NCBI GenBank assembly: GCA_044353325.1
Contig: JBILCF010000008.1
Location: forward strand, 1 to 30,326
DNA from: Chitinophagaceae bacterium
GTDB taxonomy: Bacteria > Bacteroidota > Bacteroidia > Chitinophagales > Chitinophagaceae
Direction of reading: 5' to 3'
DNA: 30,326 bases
Shown here: positions 1,442-29,520 of the stretch, in pieces
Position numbering within the stretch: position 1 is the first letter of the stretch
How the letters are laid out: each line of letters begins with the position of its first letter
Translations under genes and position numbers: made by a program
Notes under the pieces: generated by a model
Told to the model about the DNA's origin: nothing
The model's input: the letters and a program-made list of their open reading frames with translations, nothing else
Databases searched by the model: none

Positions 1442-3727
1442 TTATTCGTTAAACACAAATTTACCAGCTTTAGCTTCGCTACCATCTGTGTTGGTCACAA
1501 ACACATAATACACTCCAGTGCTAGGTCGTTTACCAGTATAGGTTTCGCCATTCCAAGTAGCTTGTCCACCTGTTGCAATGGTTCTATATACTAATTGTCC
1601 ATTGACATCTGTAATACGTACATCAGCATTTTCTACCAAACCTTTGATCGCTATCATACCATTGTAAGCACTTGGTACGGGGTTAGGAAATACAAGCAGT
1701 TCATCATTATTTTTACTTCCTTCAGTTGCATTTCCTCTGTACGAAATTAAACCTGCATTGGTGGCAATAAAGACTTCACCTGTAGTAGGATGTACTACAA
1801 TCTTATTGATTTCATTGCTTGGCAATGGGCTGTTATCTTTATTAAATTGATGTATAATTTTTTCAGCATCATCGCTGATAAGCCATATACCATTGTTGGT
1901 TCCAATCCATTTATTGTTGGCACCATCTACTGCAATTGTTTTAACTGCTTCACGCTGAAAAAGTAGGCCTGCATTTAAGTCATATTTTACGATTTTCAAT
2001 TCGGCATCGCAGCCAGATTGTGTGAAAACACTTTCGGGACAATTAAATATTCCAATACCATCTGAAGTACCAACCCATAGTTTACCATTTTTATCTTTTG
2101 TGATGCAATAAATTTCATTGTTGGGTAAATTGCCATAGCCAACTCCTGTAGTCAGTTTTTTAGTTTTGTCATCGTTTTTATTATCAATTGTACCATTATC
2201 GTCGAGCACATACAATCCTATACCACGTGGCGCTACCATCCATTTGTGGTTAGCATTGTCTATTTCTATTTGACTCGCTGCTCGCTCACTTGCTGCGTAT
2301 TGAAAAGAGAATTTTTGCCATGAGCCATCTTTCTTTTTGACCACCAATTGATCTGACGCACCATAATTGCTCATCCACAAATTTTGTTGATCATCAAATT
2401 TTAAATCTACCAATCGAAATGCATTCGGATCACCAATTGTAGGTTGTATGTAAGGAGTATTTTTGTAAACTGTGGCCTGGTTGTTAGACATATTGAGTTC
2501 CACCAACCCGCCGCCAAACGAAGCAGCAAAAGCATGTCCTGTAACGGGGTCTATGGCTACGTCCAATATATCGAGTACAGTATCCATACTTGCCGTATTG
2601 TTGTAGCGGTTAAACGACTTCCATTGTCCGGCTTTTAGTCTTGAAAACCCTGATGAGCTGAAAGTATAAATCCAGTCGCGTTCTGCACCGCCAGAAACAT
2701 ACAATTCGTTGTTATAGATACTTAAATTATAGATTGTATTGTCAAAGATAGAGTTTGGACTAATTAATTGTCGTTCATTATAATTTGTGACACGAGTCAT
2801 ACCTTGCCAAAAGTCTGCAACCCAAACCTGATTAGGTGAATATTCGACTACATCAAATGGATTGACTTGAACAATCGAATCAAGCAATACACCATTAGTG
2901 CCAAATATGCGGATGCCGCGTTGGTCCTTGTCCGATTCGCAAATGTAGAATTTCGTAGCACCTGTACGACATCGAACTATCTCCGATTGGCTTGCATAAA
3001 TCGGTATTGTATTAGCTCCATCAATATGAAATAACGTATCGGTAGAAGCGCAATAAAGTTTGTTGTCGAAAGAAAATACATAGTCCAAACCTCCATTGGT
3101 TGATTTGGTCCAGTTTGCAAAGTTTTGTAAAACAGGATTGTTGATATCTGCAGTATACAATCCATCACTTGTAGCGGCTACAAAGTTATCGTTGTATAGT
3201 GTCAAATCTTTAACCTTAAGAATTTCATTGGCTGCTTGCAGCGTATAAGTTTCTTTGATTTCACGTTTGATAGGGTCCAATACCACAATACCAAAGTCAG
3301 TAGAGAGGTAAACAAGCTTCCCTTTGAAGAACACATTATTGATAAGCTTACTGCCTGTTATATTCAGGTTTTTTATATCTGGAATATTGTAGAAAACTTG
3401 ATCTTTGAGCAAGTCAATATTACTATTTTGGTATATGATAACCATAAACCCAGTAGCTTCATCATATCGGATTTGCCGAATACCTACATCGCTCAGTCCA
3501 TTGACTTTTGAATACGTTGTAAATTCATTGCCACCTATAGAAAAGACATAAATATGATTACCTCCTGCAAATATACGATCGCCCACTTTTTCAATCGTAT
3601 TGACAGAGGTATATGAAAAATGAGTTTGCCAACTGCCTATAGGTACCTGCTGTGCTGAAGCTGGAAAAATTAGTGCTGTGAGGATGAACAGGATTGACAG
3701 CGTTTTCATTTTTTTCAAAAAAATCAT
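1442..3727 (-). CDS. Secreted two-propeller protein with a T9SS C-terminal sorting domain; PorZ-like
   Basis: 761 aa. It has a signal peptide (MKTLSILFILTALIFPASAQQ; an alternative ATG start lies at 3709) and repeated beta-propeller-type segments. The C-terminal ~80 aa (LLVFPNPV...GVYYVFV...GKFVFNE) match the Por/T9SS CTD pattern. Size and architecture fit PorZ, but that name is inferred rather than demonstrated. Confidence 0.7.
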   Translation of the reverse strand: MIFLKKMKTLSILFILTALIFPASAQQVPIGSWQTHFSYTSVNTIEKVGDRIFAGGNHIYVFSIGGNEFTTYSKVNGLSDVGIRQIRYDEATGFMVIIYQNSNIDLLKDQVFYNIPDIKNLNITGSKLINNVFFKGKLVYLSTDFGIVVLDPIKREIKETYTLQAANEILKVKDLTLYNDNFVAATSDGLYTADINNPVLQNFANWTKSTNGGLDYVFSFDNKLYCASTDTLFHIDGANTIPIYASQSEIVRCRTGATKFYICESDKDQRGIRIFGTNGVLLDSIVQVNPFDVVEYSPNQVWVADFWQGMTRVTNYNERQLISPNSIFDNTIYNLSIYNNELYVSGGAERDWIYTFSSSGFSRLKAGQWKSFNRYNNTASMDTVLDILDVAIDPVTGHAFAASFGGGLVELNMSNNQATVYKNTPYIQPTIGDPNAFRLVDLKFDDQQNLWMSNYGASDQLVVKKKDGSWQKFSFQYAASERAASQIEIDNANHKWMVAPRGIGLYVLDDNGTIDNKNDDKTKKLTTGVGYGNLPNNEIYCITKDKNGKLWVGTSDGIGIFNCPESVFTQSGCDAELKIVKYDLNAGLLFQREAVKTIAVDGANNKWIGTNNGIWLISDDAEKIIHQFNKDNSPLPSNEINKIVVHPTTGEVFIATNAGLISYRGNATEGSKNNDELLVFPNPVPSAYNGMIAIKGLVENADVRITDVNGQLVYRTIATGGQATWNGETYTGKRPSTGVYYVFVTNTDGSEAKAGKFVFNE

Positions 3728-3815
3728 AATGTGTTTATAAACGTCTAAAATTAAAGAATATTATCGATTCTGCTATAAAATTTGCGTAAGGTGCTAGCAT
3801 TCCACACGTATGTGG

Positions 3816-3823
3816 TATATTTG
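3816..3823 (+). promoter_or_regulatory. Candidate Bacteroidota -7 promoter box (TATATTTG, matches TAnnTTTG)
   Basis: Exact match to the TAnnTTTG consensus, with 8 nt between the box and the ATG at 3832. It is flanked by a 9-bp direct repeat, CGTATGTGG. Confidence 0.3.
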
Positions 3824-3831
3824 GCCTCCGT

Positions 3832-6141
3832 ATGTGGCATCATTTATCCGTATTTATTTTACGTTTTCGAATTCCTGTTTTAGCCGTTTTGCTATTACTG
3901 ACCCTTGTCATGGGCTTTTTTGCTTCAAAAGTCAAAATGAGTTATGAAATGGCAAGTGCCATTCCTACCGACAATCCCAAATATGTTGAATACCAAAATT
4001 TTAAAAAAATGTTTGGTGAAGATGGCTCGATGTTAGCTATCGGCTTCGACCGCAAAGATGTATTTCAGCCTGCATTTTTTAAAGCATTTACAGAGTGGCA
4101 AAAAAACTTAAAAAACGTGGATGGCGTTGACAATATGCTCAGCGTACCAACCGCTATTACAATTACAAAAGTGGAACAAGACAGCAGTTCAAAATTACGC
4201 ACAACTGCAATATTTGATGGACCTGACTTTGATTCCAATGTTGCTACCTTTTTAAACTTACCTTTTTACCGCAACTTATTGTATAATCCAGAAACGGGTT
4301 CATACCTCACGGCAGTGTACATTAAAAAAGAACATTTGTTTTCAGAAAAAAGGGTCAAAGTGGTGCAAGATATTGTTGCACTCACTGACTCATTTGCTCA
4401 AGCAAATCAAATGGAAGCCCATTATTCAGGTTTACCATTTATTCGTACACAGTTTGCCGAAAGTGTCAAATATGAGATGCGTCTTATCTTGCTTGTATCG
4501 TTGTTATTGACCTCAATCATTTTATTTTTATTTTTCAGGTCATTTAGTTCGGTGCTTTTCTCGATGTTGATTGTCATTGCAGGTGTAGTTTGGGCGTTGG
4601 GCTTCTTAGGATTATTTCAGTTTAAAATTACGATATTATCAGCCCTTATAGCGCCATTGTTGGTCGTGATAGGATTGCCCAATTGTATTTACTTTTTAAA
4701 TAAATACCATACACAGTTTGCGATATATAAAGATAAAAAAATGGCCCTAACAGCCATGGTCGATCGAATGGGTGTTGTTACATTATTTACAAATCTCACT
4801 GCTGCTATTGGGTTTGGGGTATTTTATTTTACTAAAAGTCAAGTCTTAAAAGAGTTTGGTTTAGTATCTGGCTTAAGTATTATGGCTGTGTTTGTGATTT
4901 CCCTTTTTGCTATTCCAGCCATTTTTAGTTTTTTACAAGCACCGCAAGAAAAACATACACGTTACCTAGAAAACAAGACCTTGACCAGCATTTTGCTTAA
5001 GTTTGAACATTGGGTATTTAATCATCGTAAGATGGTGTATTTATTCTGGACACTACTCATTGTCGTTTCGGGTATCGGTATGTTGAACCTCCATTCGGAG
5101 GGGCATATCGTGGATGATTTACCCAAGAAAAATAAAATTTATACTGATTTAAAGTATTTTGAAAAAAACTTCAACGGGGTAATGCCTTTAGAAATCGTTA
5201 TTGATACACGCAAAAAACAAGGTGCAATCAACTTAGGTACAATAGCCAAAATAGATGAACTGACTTCGATGCTACGCGAATTTAAAGAGATGTCCAAGCC
5301 ATTGTCTATGGTAGAAGCCATCAAATTTGCACGCCAGGCTTATTACGATGGCGATAGCTCCAGCTATGGTGTTCCCAATAGTTTTGATATTGCATTTTTA
5401 TTGCCTTATCTCAAAATGAAATCTGACGGGAAACAAACTCAAATGAGTAAAATAACGAGTTCATTTACAGATAGTACCAAACGATATGCACGTGTCAGTG
5501 TAAGTATGGCCGATATAGGCAGTGTGAAATTGCCTATCCTCTTAGACAGTATCAATAAACGTGCTGTCGAAATTTTTGACACTTCACGCTATTCGATTTC
5601 GTATACAGGAACAGGTGTTGTATTTCTCGAAGGGAGCAAATTCATTATCAGTAGCCTTACAGAAAGTGTTTTATTAGCGTTGTTGATGATTATTGTTTGT
5701 ATGGCATTTTTATTTCGATCATGGCGAATTGTGGTTATTTCTATCGTTACTAACTTGATTCCATTGGTCATTACAGCAGGCGTCATGGGCTTTTTTGGTA
5801 TACCTTTAAAACCTTCAACTGTATTGGTATTCAGTATTGCCTTAGGTATTGCAATCGATGTCACGATTCGATTTTTGGTCAACTACAAACAAGATTTACC
5901 GAAAAACAATTACGATATTCAAGAAACGGTCAAACAAACAATCCAAGAAACTGGAATTAGCATTATCTATACGTCGCTCATTTTAGCAGCAGGTTTTGTC
6001 GTATTTTTAGTGTCTCAGTTTGATGGTACCAAAGCATTAGGTTACTTAACAGCATTAACCTTGTTTATGGCTATGATTACCAACTTAACCATCTTGCCAG
6101 CGCTTTTAGTTTGGTTTGACAAGCAGAAGAAAAAAGGGTAA
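3832..6141 (+). CDS. RND-superfamily / MMPL-type (sterol-sensing-domain-like) membrane transporter
   Basis: 769 aa. There are two hydrophobic blocks of multiple TM helices (about aa 215-370 and 610-760), each preceded by a large soluble loop, which is typical of predicted RND/MMPL exporters. Confidence 0.8.
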   Translation: MWHHLSVFILRFRIPVLAVLLLLTLVMGFFASKVKMSYEMASAIPTDNPKYVEYQNFKKMFGEDGSMLAIGFDRKDVFQPAFFKAFTEWQKNLKNVDGVDNMLSVPTAITITKVEQDSSSKLRTTAIFDGPDFDSNVATFLNLPFYRNLLYNPETGSYLTAVYIKKEHLFSEKRVKVVQDIVALTDSFAQANQMEAHYSGLPFIRTQFAESVKYEMRLILLVSLLLTSIILFLFFRSFSSVLFSMLIVIAGVVWALGFLGLFQFKITILSALIAPLLVVIGLPNCIYFLNKYHTQFAIYKDKKMALTAMVDRMGVVTLFTNLTAAIGFGVFYFTKSQVLKEFGLVSGLSIMAVFVISLFAIPAIFSFLQAPQEKHTRYLENKTLTSILLKFEHWVFNHRKMVYLFWTLLIVVSGIGMLNLHSEGHIVDDLPKKNKIYTDLKYFEKNFNGVMPLEIVIDTRKKQGAINLGTIAKIDELTSMLREFKEMSKPLSMVEAIKFARQAYYDGDSSSYGVPNSFDIAFLLPYLKMKSDGKQTQMSKITSSFTDSTKRYARVSVSMADIGSVKLPILLDSINKRAVEIFDTSRYSISYTGTGVVFLEGSKFIISSLTESVLLALLMIIVCMAFLFRSWRIVVISIVTNLIPLVITAGVMGFFGIPLKPSTVLVFSIALGIAIDVTIRFLVNYKQDLPKNNYDIQETVKQTIQETGISIIYTSLILAAGFVVFLVSQFDGTKALGYLTALTLFMAMITNLTILPALLVWFDKQKKKG

Positions 6142-22289: not shown

Positions 22290-24797
22290 ATGTCAGAAGA
22301 AATCAATTCACCCCAAACCAACCATGTTGGCGATATGTACCAAAACTGGTTTTTGGACTATGCTAGCTATGTTATACTTGAACGAGCAGTGCCAGCAGGA
22401 TTAGATGGACTAAAACCAGTGCAAAGAAGAATATTGCATGCACTGAAGGAAATGGATGATGGTCGGTTTAACAAAGTAGCCAATGTAATAGGTCAAACCA
22501 TGCAATATCACCCTCATGGTGATGCAAGTATTGGTGAAGCCATAATCAACATTGGTCAAAAAGACATCATGTTGGATACGCAAGGAAACTGGGGTGATGT
22601 CCGTACTGGCGATAGTGCAGCTGCACCACGTTATATCGAAACTCGTCTTTCAAAATTTGCCCTTGATGTAGCTTTCAATAACAAAATTACAGAATGGCAA
22701 CTCAGTTATGACGGTCGAAAAAACGAACCTGTCAATTTACCTATGAAGTTTCCATTGCTTTTGGCCCAAGGAGCAGAAGGAATTGCAGTAGGCCTTTCTA
22801 CAAAAATATTACCGCATAATTTTTGCGAATTAATAGATGCGTCCATTAAATATCTTAAAGGAAAAAAGTTTGAATTATTTCCAGATTTCCAAACAGAAGG
22901 AATGGTGGATGTTACCAACTACAACGATGGGAAACGTGGTGGGAAGGTGCGCGTAAGAGCACATATTGAAAAAATTGACAGTAAAACTGTCCATATCAAA
23001 GATGTACCTTTTGGGGTGACAGTTCCATCTTTGATTGAAAGTATAGTCAAAGCAAATGACACTGGTAAATTAAAAATTAAAAAAGTAACTGACAACACCG
23101 CCGCAATAGTAGAAATCGAAGTTCAATTGGCAACAGGCGTAACTCCCGATCAAACCATTGATGCATTGTATGCATTTACCAATTGTGAGGTGTCGATTTC
23201 GCCCAATATCTGTGTAATTGTAGATGACAAACCTCGATTTATTACTGCTACAGAATTACTTAAAATTTCGACCGATCAAACCAAAGATTTATTGCGTCAA
23301 GAATTAGAACTCAAACTAAGAGAACTTGAAGACGATTGGCATTATTCATCGCTCGAGAAAATATTTATAGAAAAAAGAATTTACCGCGACATTGAAGAAG
23401 AAGAAACATGGGAAGGTGTTATTCAAGCAATAGACAAAGGATTACAACCCTATAAAAAATTGTTTAGAAGAGCAGTAACAACAGAAGACATCACTCGTTT
23501 GACCGAAATTAAAATCAAACGTATTTCAAAATTTGATTCATTTAAAGCTGACGAACATATAAGAGGTGTAGAAAAAAGCATAGAAGATACCAAACATCAC
23601 TTAGCACATTTAACAGAGTATGCCATTGCGTATTACGATAATTTATTAAAAAAATATGGTAAAGGGCGTGAACGCAAAACCGAAATAAAAGTATTTGATA
23701 CCATACAGGTTTCAGAAATTGCAATTGCCAATACAAAACTTTACATCAATCGCGATGAAGGTTTTATAGGAACTTCATTGAAAAAAGATGAACTCCTATG
23801 TGAATGCTCTGATGTAGATTCTATCATTGCATTTACTCGCGAAGGCAAAATGAAAGTGGTGAAAGTAGCAGATAAAATTTTTATAGGAAAAGATATCCTT
23901 CATGCTGAAATATTTAAAAAACTAGATGATAGAACAACCTACAACCTAGTCTATATTGACGGCAAAACCGGCATCACCTATGCTAAACGTTTTAATGTAA
24001 CCGGTATTACCCGCGATAAAGAATATGACTTAACCAAGGGTAGCCCTAAAAGTAAAGTACTATATTTTACATCAAACCCAAATGGCGAAAGTGAAATTAT
24101 TGGTATATCACTTACAGCTGCTTGCAAGGCAAAAATTAAAACTTTTGAATTTGATTTTGCAGAATTAGCCATAAAAGGTCGAAGTAGTATGGGTAACCAA
24201 GTAACGAAATATCCCGTCAAAGGTGTAAAATTTAAGTCGAAAGGAACTTCAACTTTAGGTGGTAAAAAAGTATGGTATGACGATGTAGTTGGTCGATTAA
24301 ATGTCGATGAAAAAGGTATGTACCTTGGTAGCTTTGGCGAAGAAGACAAAATTATTACAATGTACAACGATGGTACGTATACCTTGTGTACGACTGAATT
24401 AACGAATCGATTTGATGCAGACAAAGTGATTTTAATAGAAAAGTTCAAACCACAATCAGTTCTTACAGCTGTTTACTATGATTCCGACAAGCAACAATTT
24501 AATGTGAAACGATTTAAGATTGAAACCTTAACGTTGAACACTAAGTTCCAATTTATAAAAGATGGCGAGGGGAATTATCTTGAATGGATTACAAGTGTAG
24601 CTTCTCCTGTGATTAAATTGAAAACAGGTAAAAAGAAATTTTTACCAAGCGAACAAATTGTAAATCTCGAAGAGACAGTTGATGTGATGGGTTGGAAGGC
24701 CATAGGAAGCAAACTGTGTGAAAAAGATTTATTGGAAATTAGTCTATTAAATGAAGATGGCGAAGAAGATAGTAAACAAGGCGCTTTGTTTGAGTAG
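22290..24797 (+). CDS. parC: DNA topoisomerase IV subunit A (type IIA topoisomerase A subunit, ParC-like)
   Basis: 835 aa. It has the N-terminal GyrA/ParC signature (LDYASYVILERAVP...DGLKPVQRRIL...HPHGD) and the active-site Tyr context AAPRYIETRL. It lacks the GyrA box and is shorter than GyrA, so it fits ParC better. Confidence 0.85.
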   Translation: MSEEINSPQTNHVGDMYQNWFLDYASYVILERAVPAGLDGLKPVQRRILHALKEMDDGRFNKVANVIGQTMQYHPHGDASIGEAIINIGQKDIMLDTQGNWGDVRTGDSAAAPRYIETRLSKFALDVAFNNKITEWQLSYDGRKNEPVNLPMKFPLLLAQGAEGIAVGLSTKILPHNFCELIDASIKYLKGKKFELFPDFQTEGMVDVTNYNDGKRGGKVRVRAHIEKIDSKTVHIKDVPFGVTVPSLIESIVKANDTGKLKIKKVTDNTAAIVEIEVQLATGVTPDQTIDALYAFTNCEVSISPNICVIVDDKPRFITATELLKISTDQTKDLLRQELELKLRELEDDWHYSSLEKIFIEKRIYRDIEEEETWEGVIQAIDKGLQPYKKLFRRAVTTEDITRLTEIKIKRISKFDSFKADEHIRGVEKSIEDTKHHLAHLTEYAIAYYDNLLKKYGKGRERKTEIKVFDTIQVSEIAIANTKLYINRDEGFIGTSLKKDELLCECSDVDSIIAFTREGKMKVVKVADKIFIGKDILHAEIFKKLDDRTTYNLVYIDGKTGITYAKRFNVTGITRDKEYDLTKGSPKSKVLYFTSNPNGESEIIGISLTAACKAKIKTFEFDFAELAIKGRSSMGNQVTKYPVKGVKFKSKGTSTLGGKKVWYDDVVGRLNVDEKGMYLGSFGEEDKIITMYNDGTYTLCTTELTNRFDADKVILIEKFKPQSVLTAVYYDSDKQQFNVKRFKIETLTLNTKFQFIKDGEGNYLEWITSVASPVIKLKTGKKKFLPSEQIVNLEETVDVMGWKAIGSKLCEKDLLEISLLNEDGEEDSKQGALFE

Positions 24798-24800
24798 ACT

Positions 24801-25679
24801 TTAATATTTCGCTCCACTTACACCAATATTTTCTATTGGGTGCCAAGTCGTTTTAATTTCTTGCAAATCCATAATCAAGTATGGATTTTCATTTTCAGCT
24901 TTTGTCCAGTCTTTTTGCCACATAAAACTACGCTTTACATTTAAAGATGAAAGCTCAGCAATTGTCTTTGCTTCTTCCATATTTTCTCTGCAATAAACTA
25001 TAGCATTTACATCCATGTGCGATGCAAAATGTGTATGCAATTCTTTACTTTTTCCTGTTAAAATATTGACAACACCGCCCGGCAAATCAGATGTAGCTAA
25101 TACCTCTGCAAAGGTTATACTACACAATGGTTTTGTTTCTGATGCTAAAACCACACATGTATTACCACCTGCAATGACAGGCATGATAACAGAAACCAAT
25201 CCTAACAATGAAGAATGTTCATCTGCTATTACACTGACAACGCCAGTTGGTTCGGGTACAGAAAAATTGAAATGAGATGTAGCCACTGGGTTTACAGTTC
25301 CAAACAATTGCTGATACTTGTCACACCAACCACTGTAATAAACGCATCTATCAATAGCTAATCGAACTTCTTTTTCAGCACTTGCTTTCGTTGAACCTTG
25401 TATCATTAATTCTTCTATAAATTGCGCTTTTCTTCCTTCAAGCATTTCTGCTATTCTGTAAAGGATTTGTCCGCGATTAAATGCCGCACGCCCGCTCCAA
25501 CCTTCAAATGCTTTTCGTGCAGCAACTACAGCGTTGCGAAAATCTTTTCGAGAGGAAAGGCACATGTTTGCAATAACCTCTTTCTTATTATTTTCCAATT
25601 TATAAAATCGACCACTTTCAGTTCGAGGGAAAGCTCCACCGATGTATAGTTTGTATGTTTTTAAAATTTCTAATTGCAT
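24801..25679 (-). CDS. Truncated aldehyde dehydrogenase family paralog (NAD-binding portion only; no catalytic Cys/Glu motifs seen)
   Basis: 292 aa. The N-terminus is ALDH-like (YKLYIGG..., W....A..R..IL.R.AE) and a GGVVNILTG segment is present, but there is no ELGGK or GQxC motif. It ends 3 nt from the parC stop. Confidence 0.7.
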   Translation of the reverse strand: MQLEILKTYKLYIGGAFPRTESGRFYKLENNKKEVIANMCLSSRKDFRNAVVAARKAFEGWSGRAAFNRGQILYRIAEMLEGRKAQFIEELMIQGSTKASAEKEVRLAIDRCVYYSGWCDKYQQLFGTVNPVATSHFNFSVPEPTGVVSVIADEHSSLLGLVSVIMPVIAGGNTCVVLASETKPLCSITFAEVLATSDLPGGVVNILTGKSKELHTHFASHMDVNAIVYCRENMEEAKTIAELSSLNVKRSFMWQKDWTKAENENPYLIMDLQEIKTTWHPIENIGVSGAKY

Positions 25680-25690
25680 AGTTTTTATTT

Positions 25691-25778
25691 TTTACCACAG
25701 AGATACCAGAGTTAATATACAGAGTTATCTGAGGATTTATTTTTTATTTAAAGAGGTTTTTGAGAGTTAATTGAGACA
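25691..25778. repeat. Inverted repeat arm B-left (overlaps the 3' end of the GxxExxY ORF)
   Basis: TTTACCACAGAGATACCAGAGTTAATATACAGAG...TTTTTGAGAGTTAATTGAGACA aligns with the reverse complement of the tandem unit (TTAACCACAGAGAAAGCAGAGGCTAATCACAGAG...TTTTTCAGAGTTAAATGAGAGA). That is about 24/34 and 19/22 matches in the two segments I aligned by hand. Confidence 0.7.
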
Positions 25779-26170
25779 TAGTTTAAATCTTTATAAAATT
25801 TATTAATTAATCTTTTAATTCCATTTTTCAAGAGTGGAACATTAAAATTAATTAATAGTCCAATTTTATTATTATTTAATTTTAAATAAGTTAATAATTG
25901 AGCAATATGAACATCATTAAATTCTTCTATAGTTTTTAATTCTACAATTATTTTATCTTCAACTAATAAATCAATTTTATGACCTACATCTAACTTTATT
26001 TCTTCATAGATTAACGGTAATGATTTTTGTCTTTCTACTTTTAATCCTAGTTTATTTAATTCATAAAATAAACAAGCTTCATAACTTGATTCTAATAAAC
26101 CTGGACCAAGTGCAGAATGGACTTTTATAGCACATCCAATTATTAATTCTGTCAGTTCATTTTCTTGCAT
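25748..26170 (-). CDS. GxxExxY protein (PD-(D/E)XK fold)
   Basis: 140 aa with an ATG start. It has GLLESSY (GxxExxY), IDLLV...VELK and GLLINF...GIKRLIN. The last ~17 aa (KFYKDLNYVSINSQKPL) are read from the flanking repeat arm. Confidence 0.85.
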   Translation of the reverse strand: MQENELTELIIGCAIKVHSALGPGLLESSYEACLFYELNKLGLKVERQKSLPLIYEEIKLDVGHKIDLLVEDKIIVELKTIEEFNDVHIAQLLTYLKLNNNKIGLLINFNVPLLKNGIKRLINKFYKDLNYVSINSQKPL

Positions 26171-26267
26171 TTCGTTTGTTATTTTTTACATCAAACTTAA
26201 CCTCTATTTTCTCTAATTTCTCTCAATATTTCAATACGTTTCCTATGTGTCAGAACTCCGTTCTCTT

Positions 26268-26520
26268 TGTGGTTAATAAATCTTTGATTTTTCTCATTTA
26301 ACTCTGAAATATTTTTTGTTTTCTCTGTAATTAGCTTCTGCTTTCTCTGTGGTTAACAAATCTTTGATTTCTCTCATTTAACTCTGAAAAATTTAACTTT
26401 GTTTTCTCTGTGATTAACCTCTGCTTTCTTTGTGGTTAACAAATCTTTGATTTCTCTCATTTAACTCTGAAAAATTTAACTTTGTTCTCTCTGTGATTAG
26501 CCTCTGCTTTCTCTGTGGTC
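26268..26520. repeat. Tandem repeat, about 3.1 copies of an 80-83 bp unit
   Basis: Copies start at 26268, 26348, 26431 and 26514 (the last is partial). Copies 2 and 3 are identical at 80/83 positions. The unit contains sub-words TCTCTGTGGTTAA, TCTCTGTGATTA and TCATTTAACTCTGAAA. More degenerate material lies at about 26200-26267. Confidence 0.9.
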
Positions 26521-26527
26521 AATCAAA

Positions 26528-27946
26528 CTAGAATTTCACATATGGCAATAACCCATGTACACCTCCTTCTCTTCCAAATCCACTTTCTTTGTAACCACCA
26601 AATGGAGAAGTTGGATCAAATTTATTGTAGGTATTTGCCCAAATTACACCTGCTCTCAATTTAGTCGTTAAGTTGAAAATTTTACTGCCTTTATCCGTCC
26701 ACACACCAGCACTTAAACCATATGGAATATTATTTGCTTTTTCTATGACTTCTTCTATAGTTCTAAAAGTTTGAATCGTTAAAACAGGACCGAAAATTTC
26801 TTCTTTCACAATTCGATGGCTTTGTGAAGTCCCTATAAATAACGTTGGTTTGCAGAAAAATCCATTCAATGGAATTGCACATTCCGGTTGAAATATTTCA
26901 GCGCCTTCTTTTTGTCCAAGTTTGATGTAATGGTTTATTTTATCTAATTGTTCTTTACTATTGATAGCACCTATGTCTGTATTTTTATCCATAGGATCGC
27001 CCACTATCAAAGTCTTCATTCTATCTTTCAATTTCTTGATGACTTTTTCAGCTACATTTTCTTGAATAAATAATCTTGAACCTGCACAACATACATGACC
27101 TTGATTAAAGAAAATGCCATTTACAATTCCTTCTATAGCTTGATCAATTGGCGCATCATCAAAAATAATATTGGCCGCTTTTCCTCCTAATTCTAAAGTT
27201 ACTTTTTTAGTGGTTCCTGCAACTGCCTTTTGAATATATTTTCCAACAGGCGTACTTCCTGTAAAGGCAATTTTATTGACTTGTGGATGATTTACCAAAG
27301 CAGCACCACAATCTCCAAATCCTGTTACTATATTTACAACACCATCAGGCAAACCACTTTCTTGAATAATTTCTGCTAATTTCAAAGCTGTTAATGGTGT
27401 GCTTTCAGCAGGTTTTAAAACAACAGTGTTTCCTGTTGCCAATGCTGGTGCTAATTTCCAAGCAGCCATCAACAAGGGGAAATTCCAAGGAATAATTTGA
27501 CCCGCTACACCAATTGGTTTTGGATTTCTATTTGGAAAAGCATATTCTAATTTATCAGCCCAACCTGCATAATAGAAAAAATGATTAGCAGCTAAAGGCA
27601 CATCAATATCTCTACTTTCACGAATCGATTTTCCACCATTCATAGTTTCAATGACAGCAAATTCTCTTGCTCGTTCTTGAATCATTCGTGCAATTCTATA
27701 AATATATTTTGCTCGTTCTTTTGGATCTGTTTTGCTCCATGATTCAAATGCTTTATTGGCTGCTTTTACTGCTACATCAATATCTTTTTCATTTCCTTTT
27801 GCAACCGTTGCAATTTTTTTTCCTGTGGCAGGATTAATGGTATCGTAGTATTCCTTGCTTAATGGCTTTACAAATTTTCCATTAATGAATAAATCATATT
27901 TCGATTTTAATTGAATATGATCTGATGATTCTGGAGCTGGAGCCAT
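26528..27946 (-). CDS. NAD(P)-dependent aldehyde dehydrogenase
   Basis: Catalytic motifs LELGGKA and FFNQGHVCCAGSRL, plus the NAD-binding segment GSTPVGK. I chose the start at the ATG at 27946 (MAPAPESS..., 472 aa). The track ORF extends to 28132, but only through the 39-bp tandem repeats. Confidence 0.88.
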   Translation of the reverse strand: MAPAPESSDHIQLKSKYDLFINGKFVKPLSKEYYDTINPATGKKIATVAKGNEKDIDVAVKAANKAFESWSKTDPKERAKYIYRIARMIQERAREFAVIETMNGGKSIRESRDIDVPLAANHFFYYAGWADKLEYAFPNRNPKPIGVAGQIIPWNFPLLMAAWKLAPALATGNTVVLKPAESTPLTALKLAEIIQESGLPDGVVNIVTGFGDCGAALVNHPQVNKIAFTGSTPVGKYIQKAVAGTTKKVTLELGGKAANIIFDDAPIDQAIEGIVNGIFFNQGHVCCAGSRLFIQENVAEKVIKKLKDRMKTLIVGDPMDKNTDIGAINSKEQLDKINHYIKLGQKEGAEIFQPECAIPLNGFFCKPTLFIGTSQSHRIVKEEIFGPVLTIQTFRTIEEVIEKANNIPYGLSAGVWTDKGSKIFNLTTKLRAGVIWANTYNKFDPTSPFGGYKESGFGREGGVHGLLPYVKF

Positions 27947-27971
27947 TGATGAAAATATCCCCACAGTTTTT

Positions 27972-28088
27972 TTAGCCACTGATGACTCAGATGACACAGA
28001 TGCGATACGTTTAGCCACTGATGACTTAGATGGCACAGATGCTATACGTTTAGCCACAGATGGTGGAGATTTCACAGATGTTTGACGC
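27972..28088. repeat. Tandem repeat, 3 x 39 bp
   Basis: Units at 27972-28010, 28011-28049 (36/39 identical to unit 1) and 28050-28088 (degenerate). The unit is TTAGCCACTGATGACTCAGATGACACAGATGCGATACGT. Confidence 0.9.
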
Positions 28089-28140
28089 TTTTCTTTAGTT
28101 ACTTGTTTTATTTTTGAAATTGATTTACTCATAAATATTT

Positions 28141-28569
28141 TTATAAAATGACTCTTTTAAATGTTAATTTATCTTCTCCAAAGTTGATGATTAAACCAAT
28201 AGGATTTTTTGATGCTGCTAAATAATTTATTGTTTGTTTAAAATGACTATCTATTACATCTTTTGTTGCTTTAATTTCTAAAATTATTTTATCAAAAACT
28301 ACAAAGTCTGCTCTATAACTATGTTGTAATACAATATCTTTATAATTAATTTGATAGCATTGTTCTCTGCTAAATGTAATGTTTTGTAATTGAAATTCGT
28401 GTTCTAATGCATCTTTATATACCACTTCTGCAAAGCCTCTGCCCAACTGATTATGTACCTCCATACAAGCACCAATAATTTTAAAAGTTTCTTGTTGCAA
28501 AGGAAATTTGATAGTAGAATATCCTACATATGATTCTTCAACAACATTCATATTTTCAAAACTATTCAT
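28141..28569 (-). CDS. GxxExxY protein (PD-(D/E)XK fold)
   Basis: It has GFAEVVY (GxxExxY), RADFVV...LEIK and GLIINFG...FKRVIL. I chose the ATG at 28569; the track start at 28572 is a TTG. An internal Met (MNVVEE) could also be the start. Confidence 0.85.
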   Translation of the reverse strand: MNSFENMNVVEESYVGYSTIKFPLQQETFKIIGACMEVHNQLGRGFAEVVYKDALEHEFQLQNITFSREQCYQINYKDIVLQHSYRADFVVFDKIILEIKATKDVIDSHFKQTINYLAASKNPIGLIINFGEDKLTFKRVIL

Positions 28570-28605
28570 CAATTTCTTTTTACTAAATTAAATTAATCGG
28601 CTGTT

Positions 28606-28636
28606 CATCTGTGCTATCTGAGTCATCTTTGGCTAG
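28606..28636. repeat. Inverted repeat arm C-right (overlaps the deoC stop codon)
   Basis: The reverse complement of CATCTGTGCTATCTGAGTCATCTTTGGCTAG is CTAGCCAAAGATGACTCAGATAGCACAGATG. This compares with TTAGCCACTGATGACTCAGATGACACAGATG in the 39-bp unit. Confidence 0.8.
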
Positions 28637-29520
28637 TCTTTACTTATATAATCTCCACTATAATAAACCCCCATTTTCTCTTTCCCCAATTGCAACAAAA
28701 TATCATTGGCTAGGCTACTAGCTCCAAATCGAAACCACTCATTCGTCATCCATTTTTCACCTAAAGTTTCATATAGCATGACTAAATATTGTAATGCTGA
28801 TTTTGATGTCGAAATTCCCCCAGCTGGTTTCATGCCTATCATGATACCAGTTTCATCATAATAATCTTTAATGGCTTGCAACATTACTAATGTCACTGGC
28901 ATAGTCGCAGCTGGTTGTATTTTACCTGTAGATGTTTTAATGAAATCAGCACCAGCAAAAATAGCAATATCACTTGCTTTTCGCACATTATCTAATGTCG
29001 ACAATTCGCCAGTTTCTAAAATGACTTTTAATCGAGCTACACCACATGCTTCTTTAATAGCAGCGATTTCATCATACACAAAATTATAATTTCCTGATAA
29101 AAATTCTCCCCTACTGATAACCATGTCAACTTCATCTGCACCACTATTGACTGCAATTTTTACATCTTCTAATTTTATTTTTCTCGATGAATTTCCACTA
29201 GGAAAAGCTGTGGCAACTGATGCTACTTTTACGTTTGAATTTTCTAAAGCTTTTTTGGCTGTTTTCACATGATTAGGATATACGCATACTGCCGCTACCG
29301 TTGGCAAGCCTTCAATATCGTCTGCTAAGTGCATCGCTTTGTAGCACATTTGTTTGACTTTTCCTGCGGTGTCTTTTCCTTCTAATGTAGTTAAATCAAT
29401 CATGTTTAAGGCTAATAACATGCCTTGAATTTTACTTTCTTTTTTAATACTTCGGGTATTGAACCTTGCCACTCGTTCTTCTACACCTACTTGATCTATA
29501 GTCACGTTTGAAAACTTCAT
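28633..29520 (-). CDS. deoC: Deoxyribose-phosphate aldolase (long DeoC type)
   Basis: 295 aa. It has a class I aldolase TIM barrel with the Schiff-base lysine context GADFIKTSTGK, plus VCVYP and EVDMVI segments. Confidence 0.85.
   Translation of the reverse strand: MKFSNVTIDQVGVEERVARFNTRSIKKESKIQGMLLALNMIDLTTLEGKDTAGKVKQMCYKAMHLADDIEGLPTVAAVCVYPNHVKTAKKALENSNVKVASVATAFPSGNSSRKIKLEDVKIAVNSGADEVDMVISRGEFLSGNYNFVYDEIAAIKEACGVARLKVILETGELSTLDNVRKASDIAIFAGADFIKTSTGKIQPAATMPVTLVMLQAIKDYYDETGIMIGMKPAGGISTSKSALQYLVMLYETLGEKWMTNEWFRFGASSLANDILLQLGKEKMGVYYSGDYISKD

Follow-up and report, generated by a model that had tools for sequence, protein, structure and literature searches.

A GxxExxY cassette bounded by inverted arms, the upstream one amplified, in an aldehyde dehydrogenase operon of a Chitinophagaceae bacterium

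The ALDH1/ALDH2 spacer of a deoC-ALDH1-ALDH2 operon, in a 30,326-nucleotide stretch of a Chitinophagaceae bacterium (contig JBILCF010000008.1, hereafter the window), carries an insertion of ~830 bp (which we refer to as cassette B) that encodes a GxxExxY protein between inverted arms, the upstream arm being multiplied into a tandem array. GxxExxY cassettes built in the same way make up a very large class that crosses phyla, and they are gained or lost between close relatives; we regard cassette B as an ordinary member of this widespread, poorly described class of element. Its features and the neighbouring host genes are as follows.

24801 to 25679, minus strand: host gene ALDH2, a 292-aa ALDH-like protein (PF00171 positions 7-211 of 461).
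25694 to 26527, minus strand: whole cassette B, placed by the empty sites in L092, L093, L094, L095 and L101 and by low GC; it runs from the ALDH1 stop to the ALDH2 leader, the ALDH1-side boundary being precise to about +/-8 nt.
25694 to 25724, minus strand: terminal block a' of the downstream arm, CTCTGT..TCTCTGTGGT on the coding strand, ending 14 nt before the ALDH2 ATG (25679).
25748 to 26170, minus strand: cassette B open-reading frame, 140 aa, GxxExxY / PDDEXK_3 (PF13366 E 2.3e-41, TIGR04256 E 6.8e-44), the last ~12 codons reading through into arm b'.
25757 to 25776, minus strand: inner block b' of the downstream arm, complementary to block b of every unit and lying within the coding end.
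26171 to 26234, minus strand: putative leader between the arms and the open-reading frame start, as read from the sequence.
26235 to 26281, minus strand: fourth, degenerate arm copy c0, a 73% copy and the positional orthologue of the single L091 arm.
26282 to 26361, minus strand: tandem unit 3 (blocks a+b, 80 nt), the copy to which the predicted RNA fold pairs the downstream arm.
26362 to 26444, minus strand: tandem unit 2 (a+b, 83 nt).
26445 to 26527, minus strand: tandem unit 1, the outermost (a+b, 83 nt), beginning directly after the ALDH1 stop codon (26528-26530).
26528 to 28132, minus strand: host gene ALDH1, a full-length aldehyde dehydrogenase (PF00171 E 3.7e-165).

The closest relative, L092, whose ALDH proteins are 97-98% identical, has an ALDH1/ALDH2 spacer without cassette B, and in L092, L093, L094, L095 and L101 alike this spacer is just 50-60 nt long and contains neither an open-reading frame nor repeats. 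The ALDH2 leader common to these empty-site relatives, AAATAAAAA..ATG, restarts directly after the downstream arm TCTCTGTGGT. The empty spacers in close relatives thus identify cassette B as an insertion which ends at the arm termini. Windowed GC content falls to 0.19 over 25801-26100 and 0.29 over 26101-26400, whereas the ALDH genes on either side have 0.33-0.40, so that the impression of an earlier note, made by eye, that the cassette is AT-rich as an insertion would be, is upheld by both composition and empty sites. Compared with the empty site, about 35 nt of spacer was replaced, not duplicated, and comparison with the empty-site alleles revealed no target-site duplication at cassette B or at a second cassette in the window, cassette A (below). 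Divergence from L092 beside cassette B is raised at the ALDH1 3' end, but is mosaic. ALDH2 itself matches the N-terminal half of the ALDH fold only and is of equal length in 80 relatives. A permissive Rfam scan gave no rRNA or other Rfam match in 24500-29000, and a terminator scan found no terminator on the operon strand.

Upstream of the open-reading frame, Tandem Repeats Finder reported an array at 26264-26527 (period 83, 3.2 copies, 91% matches, score 428), whilst a repeat search resolved copies at 26235-26317 (73%), 26315-26397 (the reference), 26398-26480 (95%) and 26481-26527, the array extending over 26235-26527 when the degenerate copy is included. The ~3.1 tandem copies of 80-83 bp described in the earlier note are therefore three full units plus a degenerate fourth. 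Copies 2 and 3 are nearly identical, as had been claimed, at 95% (about 79/83) rather than the 80/83 given, and this level of identity fits the recent expansion or homogenisation that had been proposed. Downstream, alignment of 25685-25785 with the reverse-complemented units, a test set beforehand, scored 39 against 16.1 +/- 2.6 in 1000 shuffles (z 8.9), and just 12 in the direct orientation; the single inverted copy reported downstream is thus real, spans 25691-25776 and bears indels. Block a' is 73-74% complementary over 34-37 nt and block b' 90% over 20 nt, the two standing in unit order with ~19 additional bases between them. The overlap with the coding end, noted earlier as ~30 nt, is 31 nt (25748-25778), takes in all of b' and begins with the stop codon at 25748-25750. 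The arms are composed of purine-rich sub-repeats, ACCACAGAGA / GCAGAGG / CACAGAG, spaced 10-12 nt; allowing one mismatch or fewer, the window contains 8 occurrences of ACCACAGAGA where 0.95 are expected, and 7 of the 8 are inside cassette B. Like the CRCARAG arms of the class, which start (T)TAACCRCARAG, the window arms read GACCACAGAGAAAGCAGAGG..CACAGAG plus the inverse.

An orthologous cassette in L091, with a 90% identical protein and the same junction, possesses a single upstream a+b arm, and its open-reading frame is preceded by 140 nt where that of cassette B is preceded by 357 nt. The array is consequently specific to the cassette B lineage, and it was one arm that was amplified, as the earlier reading held. 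The L091 open-reading frame stops before arm b'; that of cassette B has lost its stop and reads 12 codons further into the arm, and the overlap of gene and arm is secondary. A three-copy array could in principle be produced by short-read assembly of a repeat, and amplified-arm cassettes do break short-read assemblies and create spurious open-reading frames: of the nine contigs which span the spacer, one (L009) is interrupted within the array by a gap of 100 N, and a tenth (L004) starts inside it. The other eight, independently assembled from metagenomes, contain an identical array within an identical 848-nt spacer, and the array copies carry distinguishing substitutions, which makes an artefact scarcely credible.

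The cassette B protein scores 141.2 bits to PF13366 (cut-off 22) and 148.9 bits to TIGR04256 (cut-off 35). Across 31 aligned homologues G24-L-L-E27-S-S-Y30, D67, E77 and K79 are invariant, and the catalytic D..ExK residues are intact. An AF2 model (pLDDT 87, pTM 0.80, with a disordered tail at 132-140) displays a PD-(D/E)XK alpha/beta fold, and the best PDB fold matches from Foldseek are all PD-(D/E)XK nucleases, albeit weak ones (Cas4 SSO0001, E 2.7e-3, TM 0.47), with lambda exonuclease and tRNA-splicing endonuclease as other weak matches. A sequence-profile search against the PDB found no solved structure. We rejected the choice of a specific functional analogue from Foldseek, as the matches are weak and generic to PD-(D/E)XK, and did not accept the marginal PADLOC and PHROGs similarity (Cas4/endonuclease) as evidence for a defence system. 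The family, which comprises many thousands of proteins (at least 8000 candidates in a word-index search), was entered without an assigned function in a survey of PD-(D/E)XK proteins (PMC3424549). One might read the gene as an ordinary accessory gene serving the host, e.g. in defence or repair, with the array as an operator or promoter region for it or for ALDH2. The open-reading frame is intact and conserved, a weak Cas4-type nuclease similarity (E 4e-4) is present, and TAAGTTTG, in the leader upstream of the open-reading frame, resembles what we take to be the Bacteroidota -7 promoter element; sigma-70 promoter-like sites were not commoner than in shuffles, using a tool without Bacteroidota promoter models. 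However, there is no convincing PADLOC system match and there are no partner genes, the genomic neighbourhoods are unrelated housekeeping operons, and the array, missing from the orthologous cassette of L091, is not required. We consider this reading very unlikely.

Cassette A, 2 kb from cassette B, is its mirror image in that the downstream arm is amplified instead.

27971 to 28087, minus strand: cassette A downstream arm, 3 x 39 bp, in frame within the ALDH1 5' end.
28141 to 28572, minus strand: cassette A GxxExxY open-reading frame, 143 aa, 34% identical to the cassette B protein.
28606 to 28635, minus strand: the only upstream arm of cassette A, with 77-87% complementarity to the three downstream copies individually.

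Its protein scores 123.3 bits to PF13366 and 138.3 bits to TIGR04256, and its upstream arm starts with the deoC stop codon TAG. The arm is present in two copies in L093 and three in the window. The array seems to be translated as the ALDH1 N-terminus, which suggests that cassettes can be absorbed into host coding sequence. Contigs L009 and L010 of the same species, with flanks 99.3-99.7% identical, are missing cassette A, and the cassette appears to have been acquired together with diverged flanking sequence. As judged from these sequences, the diverged flanks point to homologous recombination from a cassette-bearing lineage, not to de novo insertion.

The anatomy recurs across the family. Inverted flank-to-flank matches with z >= 5 were found at 51 of 79 diverse GxxExxY loci (48 in a rerun) against 2 of 146 shifted controls, about one third of the surveyed loci having no detectable arms. 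Family arms begin TTAACCRCARAG and closely border the open-reading frame, and the strict double motif (181 loci) occurs almost only just upstream (+) or just downstream (-) of GxxExxY open-reading frames. At 14 sampled loci the spacers around cassettes are typically 35-80 nt and 26 of 28 neighbours are co-oriented (13/14 upstream, 13/14 downstream); cassettes A and B likewise lie co-directionally in operon spacers, with arms that reach up to the stop codon of one neighbour and the start codon of the next. Such strict co-orientation with host operons is equally expected of an RNA-level function. The match between the two arms exceeds what their common composition would give, with 76% of cells paired as opposed to 30-42% when the partners are slid, and double-change cells number 42 against 22 +/- 4 in shuffles (reached in 0/500), although the covarying sequences are related and represent two arm sub-types, which may mean that the covariation goes back to few independent events. 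Arms are amplified elsewhere too, for example in L011 (3 x 98 nt), L041 (2 x 47 nt), L060 (55 nt x 3.9 and 84 nt x 3.6) and L070 (105 nt x 3.1 and x 2.6), and the three-copy arm alone is a minor, recurrent variation. In old, vertically inherited insertions the arms are retained, as in the hemN-GxxExxY-cyclase context common to several Flavobacterium-type loci, amongst them L047 of Flavobacterium faecale WV33 (NZ_CP182943.1, around 1.8703-1.8757 Mb), whilst decay is seen in the inner arm pair of L047 and the downstream arm of L040. Repeat pairs without an open-reading frame occur in L070 and L131; amongst medium-sized empty spacers of relatives, such a scar was clear in one (L131) and absent from 9 others.

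In other lineages the same spacers are occupied by cassettes encoding the 23S-rRNA-IVS-protein (PF05635) or DUF559, each with arms of its own: PF05635 cassettes have GTTTAAGGG-type arms and DUF559 cassettes GGGGTGTGT/AGAGGGGA arms. The arms are specific to the encoded protein family. This bears on whether the arms are relics of a delivery event, now unused and kept alike by template switching or gene conversion, the array being neutral slippage. The imperfection of the arms (about 75% in cassette B), the armless third of loci, the decay in L047 and L040, mismatches without strand asymmetry and exact-protein look-ups that give no evidence of current mobility would all suit such a history. Against it, arms and the conserved terminal motif persist in insertions common to several species and in several phyla, and three unrelated protein families each retain their own arm type. 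Repeats of 40 nt lying 400 nt apart are also poor substrates for homologous gene conversion, given the minimal homology lengths. We hold a neutral relic to be improbable.

Several known systems share part of this anatomy. REP/REPIN-RAYT elements (PMC3116915) likewise consist of a single small gene between matching inverted short repeats, are mostly inherited vertically and have counterparts to the gene-less repeat pairs of L070 and L131, but RAYTs are Y1 (IS200/IS605-like) transposases whereas the cassette protein is PD-(D/E)XK with PF13366 only; moreover, the arm motif is not dispersed within the 30-kb window, and each of the many paralogous cassettes has an arm variant of its own. With MITEs and small IS-type transposons cassette B has in common that inverted repeats mark the two ends of the insertion, that it lies between genes and that the insertion is polymorphic, yet cassette B has no target-site duplication and no recognised transposase, and identical cassette copies are absent from other loci, the window's two proteins being only 34% identical. 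Free-standing homing endonuclease genes are also small nuclease genes present or absent at a fixed site between conserved genes, with empty alleles as in L092 and L093 (cassette B) and L009 and L010 (cassette A), and acquisition with diverged flanks is what gene conversion gives; they are, however, normally without structured inverted arms, and the nuclease activity of GxxExxY proteins is only predicted. Integron gene cassettes (attC) share a single promoter-less, co-directional open-reading frame with an imperfect inverted-repeat recombination site, but attC lies downstream of the open-reading frame only and requires an integrase and an attI platform, both absent at cassette B.

The closest described counterpart is the RNase III-processed intervening sequence (IVS) of 23S rRNA, known from Coxiella, Leptospira, Salmonella and others (PMC4990558). 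The Coxiella IVS is 428 nt long, with a PF05635 open-reading frame, a 28-bp terminal stem which RNase III cleaves in vitro, RACE-mapped ends inside that stem and strain-variable tandem heptamers, GACAGAT (PMC4990558). Common to both are a ~0.4-0.8 kb element with one small open-reading frame of 120-140 aa, terminal inverted repeats forming a ~30-bp stem that encloses the element, variable-number short tandem repeats beside the open-reading frame, presence/absence polymorphism, and the use of the same operon spacers in relatives by PF05635 genes of the IVS family. Unlike an IVS, cassette B sits between two ALDH genes of a protein-coding operon rather than in helix 25 or 45, its protein is a PF13366 PD-(D/E)XK rather than an S23p / PF05635 four-helix bundle, its arm motif is CRCARAG, and the whole 83-bp arm unit, not merely a heptamer, has been multiplied.

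This parallel raises the possibility that cassette B acts as an IVS-like RNA element, in which the arms form a stem round the open-reading frame in the read-through transcript, RNase III cuts it and frees the cassette RNA, and the host cistrons stay functional, with extra copies as alternative pairing partners. The predicted fold of an 856-nt transcript does enclose the open-reading frame, pairing a'+b' with unit 3 (z -4.8), and the cassette B mini-stem is -31.6 to -32.7 kcal/mol (z about -6.6 to -6.9), that of the cassette A arms -44 kcal/mol (z -12). Such a role would also agree with the covarying arms, the nearly constant co-orientation of spacer-filling cassettes with flanking genes, the operon's want of a terminator-like site, and the armed PF05635 cassettes in the same spacers. 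Selection for an RNA helix should, however, give an excess of G.U over A.C-type mismatches on the sense strand, and in small hand tallies there is none (18 vs 26, 23 vs 26), which we take as a sign of DNA-level rather than sense-RNA constraint. In addition, pairing alone does not require the sequence conservation that the terminal motif TTAACCRCARAG shows across phyla, there is no obvious reason why an mRNA spacer, in contrast to rRNA, should have to be excised, and Rfam gives no match. An RNA element of this kind is possible, and we are inclined to doubt it.

The reading we favour, tentatively and at slightly less than an even chance, is that cassette B is an arm-bounded GxxExxY insertion with lineage-specific multiplication of the upstream arm, whose arms are matched at the DNA level through a common binder, the array being a by-product and the RNA stem incidental. 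Both arms would be kept matched because the same factor binds both ends. The most plausible binder, a pure conjecture, would be the cassette's own nuclease, perhaps as a multimer touching the sub-repeats on one helix face. Binding would serve maintenance or spread, either as end recognition for excision and integration or through cleavage-stimulated copying into cassette-free alleles. Slippage during replication, or unequal recombination between arms that are repetitive within themselves, could have produced the 83-bp array, extra copies simply adding spare binding or pairing partners. In a transcript that reads through the operon, the arms must presumably also pair into an RNA stem of ~30 bp, comparable to those that RNase III processes in 23S rRNA IVSs, and this stem may limit harm to the host operon. 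Counting against this explanation, recent transposition was not detected, as the exact cassette B protein occurs at a single locus (23 contigs), as does the exact P0091 protein (24 contigs), and a 125-aa PD-(D/E)XK domain is, to our knowledge, not among the known transposases. The missing target-site duplication and the acquisition of cassette A with diverged flanks were also counted against it.

The term GxxExxY is rare in the searchable literature despite the size of the family, and a description of arms around GxxExxY, PF13366, PF05635 or DUF559 genes was not found there (subscription journals lay outside this search). A broader proposal, which we put forward as doubtful, is that GxxExxY, PF05635/Avd-like and DUF559 cassettes form one extremely abundant and hitherto unrecognised class of selfish elements living in operons, 'intervening sequences of mRNA operons'. 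In each family the cassette's own protein would recognise the family-specific arms, folded into a DNA hairpin or cruciform, and this would serve the spread and retention of the cassette; processing of the same arms as an RNA stem would make the insertion tolerable to the host operon. On this view the classical rRNA IVSs would be no more than a special case, cassettes that happened to enter rRNA. If true, such a unified class would answer the decades-old question of where rRNA IVSs came from. Taken together, the arms, the co-directional life in operon spacers and the shared spacers offer three 'orphan' families a model that can be tested, and the rRNA IVS a plausible origin.

Cassette B, the GxxExxY cassette at 25694-26527 between the aldehyde dehydrogenase genes ALDH1 (26528-28132) and ALDH2 (24801-25679), carries a tandem array upstream of its ORF and an inverted copy of the array unit downstream, with the minus strand as coding strand for every gene in the region. 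Over 26264-26527 Tandem Repeats Finder counted 3.2 copies with a period of 83 (91% matches, score 428), and a repeat search marked 26235-26317 (73% against the reference), 26315-26397, 26398-26480 (95%) and 26481-26527 as copies, bearing out the three-copy amplification of an 80-83 bp unit claimed in an earlier note, here as three full units and a degenerate fourth. The claimed inverted copy is real: 25685-25785 scored 39 against the reverse-complemented units, 12 against the units in direct orientation and 16.1 ± 2.6 in 1000 shuffles (z 8.9), a comparison with shuffled sequence fixed beforehand. This copy consists of two blocks in the order of the unit with ~19 extra bases between them, the second falling within the final codons of the ORF (25748-26170), as the earlier note had read it, and windowed GC was likewise as low as supposed, at 0.19-0.29 inside the cassette vs. 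0.33-0.40 in the flanks.

Arms of cassette B (blocks a and b make up the unit, a' and b' its inverted copy)
26445-26527, minus strand: full upstream unit 1, after the ALDH1 stop codon (26528-26530)
26362-26444, minus strand: full upstream unit 2
26282-26361, minus strand: full upstream unit 3
starting at 26281, minus strand: fourth, degenerate unit copy
25757-25776, minus strand: block b', 90% complementary
25694-25724, minus strand: block a'

Ten same-species metagenome contigs carry cassette B in identical form, and assemblies from short reads break at the 83-bp array: in scaffold L009 a gap of 100 N interrupts it (~2490-2590) and position 1 of contig L004 falls within it. That the array is itself an assembly artefact we regard as extremely improbable. 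More distant relatives, found through ALDH2 and then mapped by tblastn, often have an ALDH1/ALDH2 spacer of merely 50-60 nt (L092, L093, L094, L095, L101 and many others), the ALDH proteins of L092 being 97-98% identical to those of the window. The ALDH2 leader common to relatives, AAATAAAAA..ATG, resumes in the window directly after TCTCTGTGGT, and on the other side the cassette begins no more than 8 nt from the ALDH1 stop; because this comparison with empty sites places both cassette ends there, the segment that the earlier note had proposed as an insertion coincides almost exactly with the inserted DNA. No target-site duplication was seen against the empty spacers. Those of L092 (3942-3994) and L093 (3943-4000) hold a small hairpin, CCTCC-AAA-GGAGG (GCCTCCCTGCCCTCCAAAGGAGG), which is missing where the cassette sits, and therefore ~35 nt of spacer were replaced, not simply interrupted. 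An orthologous cassette in L091 occupies the same junction, with a protein 90% identical and a single a+b arm that aligns by position with the degenerate fourth copy and leader of the window, leaving the three 95%-similar units as extra. These alignments show the arm array to be lineage-specific, and cassette B to be a polymorphic insertion that carries a GxxExxY gene and has inverted arms at its ends. It lacks the target-site duplication, the transposase and the multiple copies that would mark a transposon, and it is not a RAYT system either.

The 140 aa product is a GxxExxY protein by sequence (Pfam PF13366 PDDEXK_3, E 2.3e-41; NCBIfam TIGR04256, E 6.8e-44) and agreed with the family in every feature tested. 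All 31 aligned homologues keep G24xxE27xxY30 and the nuclease triad D67...E77-x-K79, and secondary structure in the AlphaFold model (pLDDT 87) follows the PD-(D/E)XK nuclease order, alpha-alpha-beta-beta-beta-alpha-beta. A fold search of the PDB gave weak matches only, to Cas4, lambda exonuclease and tRNA-splicing endonuclease. Among the at least 8000 family matches listed, proteins are typically 123-128 aa; the 12 additional C-terminal residues here, disordered in the model, arose because the stop codon kept in L091 was lost and translation enters arm b'. The family is without assigned function in PMC3424549, and a host regulatory or defence module seems a quite improbable role for the cassette.

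A profile search of genome contigs with the GxxExxY alignment gave 80 diverse loci, mostly Bacteroidota, with others from Anaerolineae, Coleofasciculus, Opitutaceae, Acidobacteriota and Kryptoniota. When the 350 nt upstream of each ORF were compared with the reverse complement of the 350 nt downstream, inverted arms at z ≥ 5 were found in 51 of 79 loci (48 in a rerun) vs. 2 of 146 control positions displaced by 1.5 kb. Arms span 20-60 nt, as a rule lie 0-60 nt from the ORF, and comprise 2-4 CRCARAG sub-repeats at 9-12 nt spacing, typically starting TTAACCRCARAG; across 181 loci AACCRCARAG-N2-6-CRCARAG is almost confined to the plus strand just upstream and the minus strand just downstream of GxxExxY ORFs. 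Neighbours were co-oriented with the cassette at 13 of 14 sampled loci upstream and 13 of 14 downstream, with spacers typically of 35-80 nt. The sequence survey shows the arm architecture to be family-wide and the position of the cassettes, at the sampled loci, to be co-directional in operon spacers. Whole-arm amplification recurs, as 3 × 98 nt in L011, 2 × 47 nt in L041, and 55 nt × 3.9 upstream with 84 nt × 3.6 downstream in L060. L070 has tandem 105-nt units of forward arm plus reverse arm with no ORF between, in arrays on both sides of its GxxExxY gene (2118-2451, 3.1 copies; 3003-3285, 2.6 copies), which resemble MITE- or REPIN-type elements derived from the arms. Nested arms surround one GxxExxY ORF in L047 (2330-3100), an intact outer pair (TTTAACCGCAAAGCTCGCAAAGG... 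and its inverse) around a decayed inner pair, and look as if renewed or duplicated outward.

Other cassettes occupy the deoC/ALDH1 and ALDH1/ALDH2 spacers elsewhere: GxxExxY genes with CGCAAAG arms (L126, L149, L160), PF05635 '23S rRNA intervening sequence protein' genes (L131, L138, L144, L152, L156, L158, L159), DUF559 genes (L136, L141, L147) and one bPH_4 gene. The PF05635 and DUF559 cassettes each have inverted arms of their own type, GTTTAAGGG repeats or TCCCCTCT..AGAGGGGATTAAGGGGTGTGT, 20-45 nt long and 71-97% complementary. The ALDH1/ALDH2 spacer of L131 also holds an ORF-less inverted pair (3791-3903; 37-nt arms, 39 nt between) of a further arm type with GTGATAAT sub-repeats. At the ruvC-hemN-GxxExxY-cyclase-yjbR locus (L172-L181) the GxxExxY cassette is fixed throughout, and the PF05635/bAvd cassette lies in the cyclase/yjbR spacer in some strains, in ruvC/hemN in others and is absent from others, and so is apparently mobile among close strains.

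To score the facing arms, 13 Flavobacterium-type cassettes were aligned over a helix of 40 pairs. Standard pairs filled 76.1% of cells (30-42% with the partner slid), 18 of 40 pairs were changed on both sides (shuffles 13.5 ± 1.8; reached in 8 of 500), double-change cells numbered 42 (22.3 ± 3.9; 0 of 500) and the covariation score was 0.210 (0.133; 0 of 500), these representing few independent events because the 13 sequences are related and form two sub-types. CGCAAAG-type arms face CTTTGCG, CACAAAG-type arms face CTTTGTG, and the spacers between sub-repeats match too, showing at the level of alignment that the arms are matched to each other. That the arms are a neutral relic is rather improbable.

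In the main rival reading the selected feature would be an RNA stem, after the pattern of the 23S rRNA IVS, whose 28-bp terminal stem is cleaved by RNase III and whose tandem heptamers differ in copy number (PMC4990558); cassette B may work alike but differs in location and ORF family. In the predicted fold of the 856-nt transcript a'+b' pairs with unit 3, closing the ORF (-161 kcal/mol, z -4.8), and mini-stems are predicted at -31.6 and -32.7 kcal/mol in cassette B and -44 kcal/mol in cassette A, the second GxxExxY cassette of the window (z -6.6 to -12); a scan of the operon strand found no terminator-like site. We consider this explanation possible but unlikely, as hand tallies gave no excess of sense-RNA G.U wobbles over A.C-type mismatches, either in the 13-cassette alignment (18 vs. 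26) or in the gapless arm pairs of the family survey (23 vs. 26). Because of this parity, the conservation of the terminal motif across phyla and the specificity of arm types to protein family, constraint at the DNA level is favoured. Our tentatively preferred reading is that the arms would be ends recognised by the cassette's own putative nuclease, serving retention or spread, that slippage or unequal recombination between internally repetitive arms may have produced the array, and that operon read-through would necessarily form an RNA stem from the arms, with processing possible. Against it count the absence of any sign of recent transposition and of a target-site duplication.

Cassette A, between deoC and ALDH1, mirrors cassette B, with the downstream arm amplified and the upstream arm single; its ORF (28141-28572) encodes a protein 34% identical to that of cassette B.

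Arms of cassette A
28606-28635, minus strand: single upstream arm, opening with the deoC stop codon
27971-28087, minus strand: downstream arm, 3 × 39 bp

It is absent from same-species L009 and L010 (flanks 99.3-99.7% identical), where 120 nt (825-944) replace the 715 nt of the window (27922-28637) and the first ~50 nt of the ALDH1 coding sequence have diverged too, which suggests whole-allele exchange by homologous recombination. With the 120-nt segment ALDH1 gains another N-terminus, MTTTKKNNIKK..., and the segment itself holds a weak arm-like stretch, ACATCTGTTTTAACTGTTAAATCAGTG. ALDH2 (minus strand) is 292 aa long and covers no more of the aldehyde dehydrogenase fold than its N-terminal half (positions 7-211 of the 461 in the profile); its length is kept in all 80 relatives found (L092-L171), it follows a full-length ALDH1 wherever the upstream region is covered, and it looks like a conserved half-ALDH. 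In the window the 39-bp array is in frame with the 5' end of ALDH1 (27971-28132, minus strand), each unit of 13 codons encoding a repeated SVAKRIASVxSxS peptide. Cassette A of L093 has two 39-bp copies only (2370-2560), and since its ALDH1 has no internal Met, translation of that gene must begin at the ATG that follows the cassette stop by 8 nt, so that the arm array would be translated as an N-terminal extension. Mobile-element arms would thus have become host coding sequence of varying copy number.

The freely available literature searched held no description of GxxExxY arms or of these operon-spacer cassettes, and the three-copy arm of cassette B is routine variation within a widespread, poorly described class of elements.
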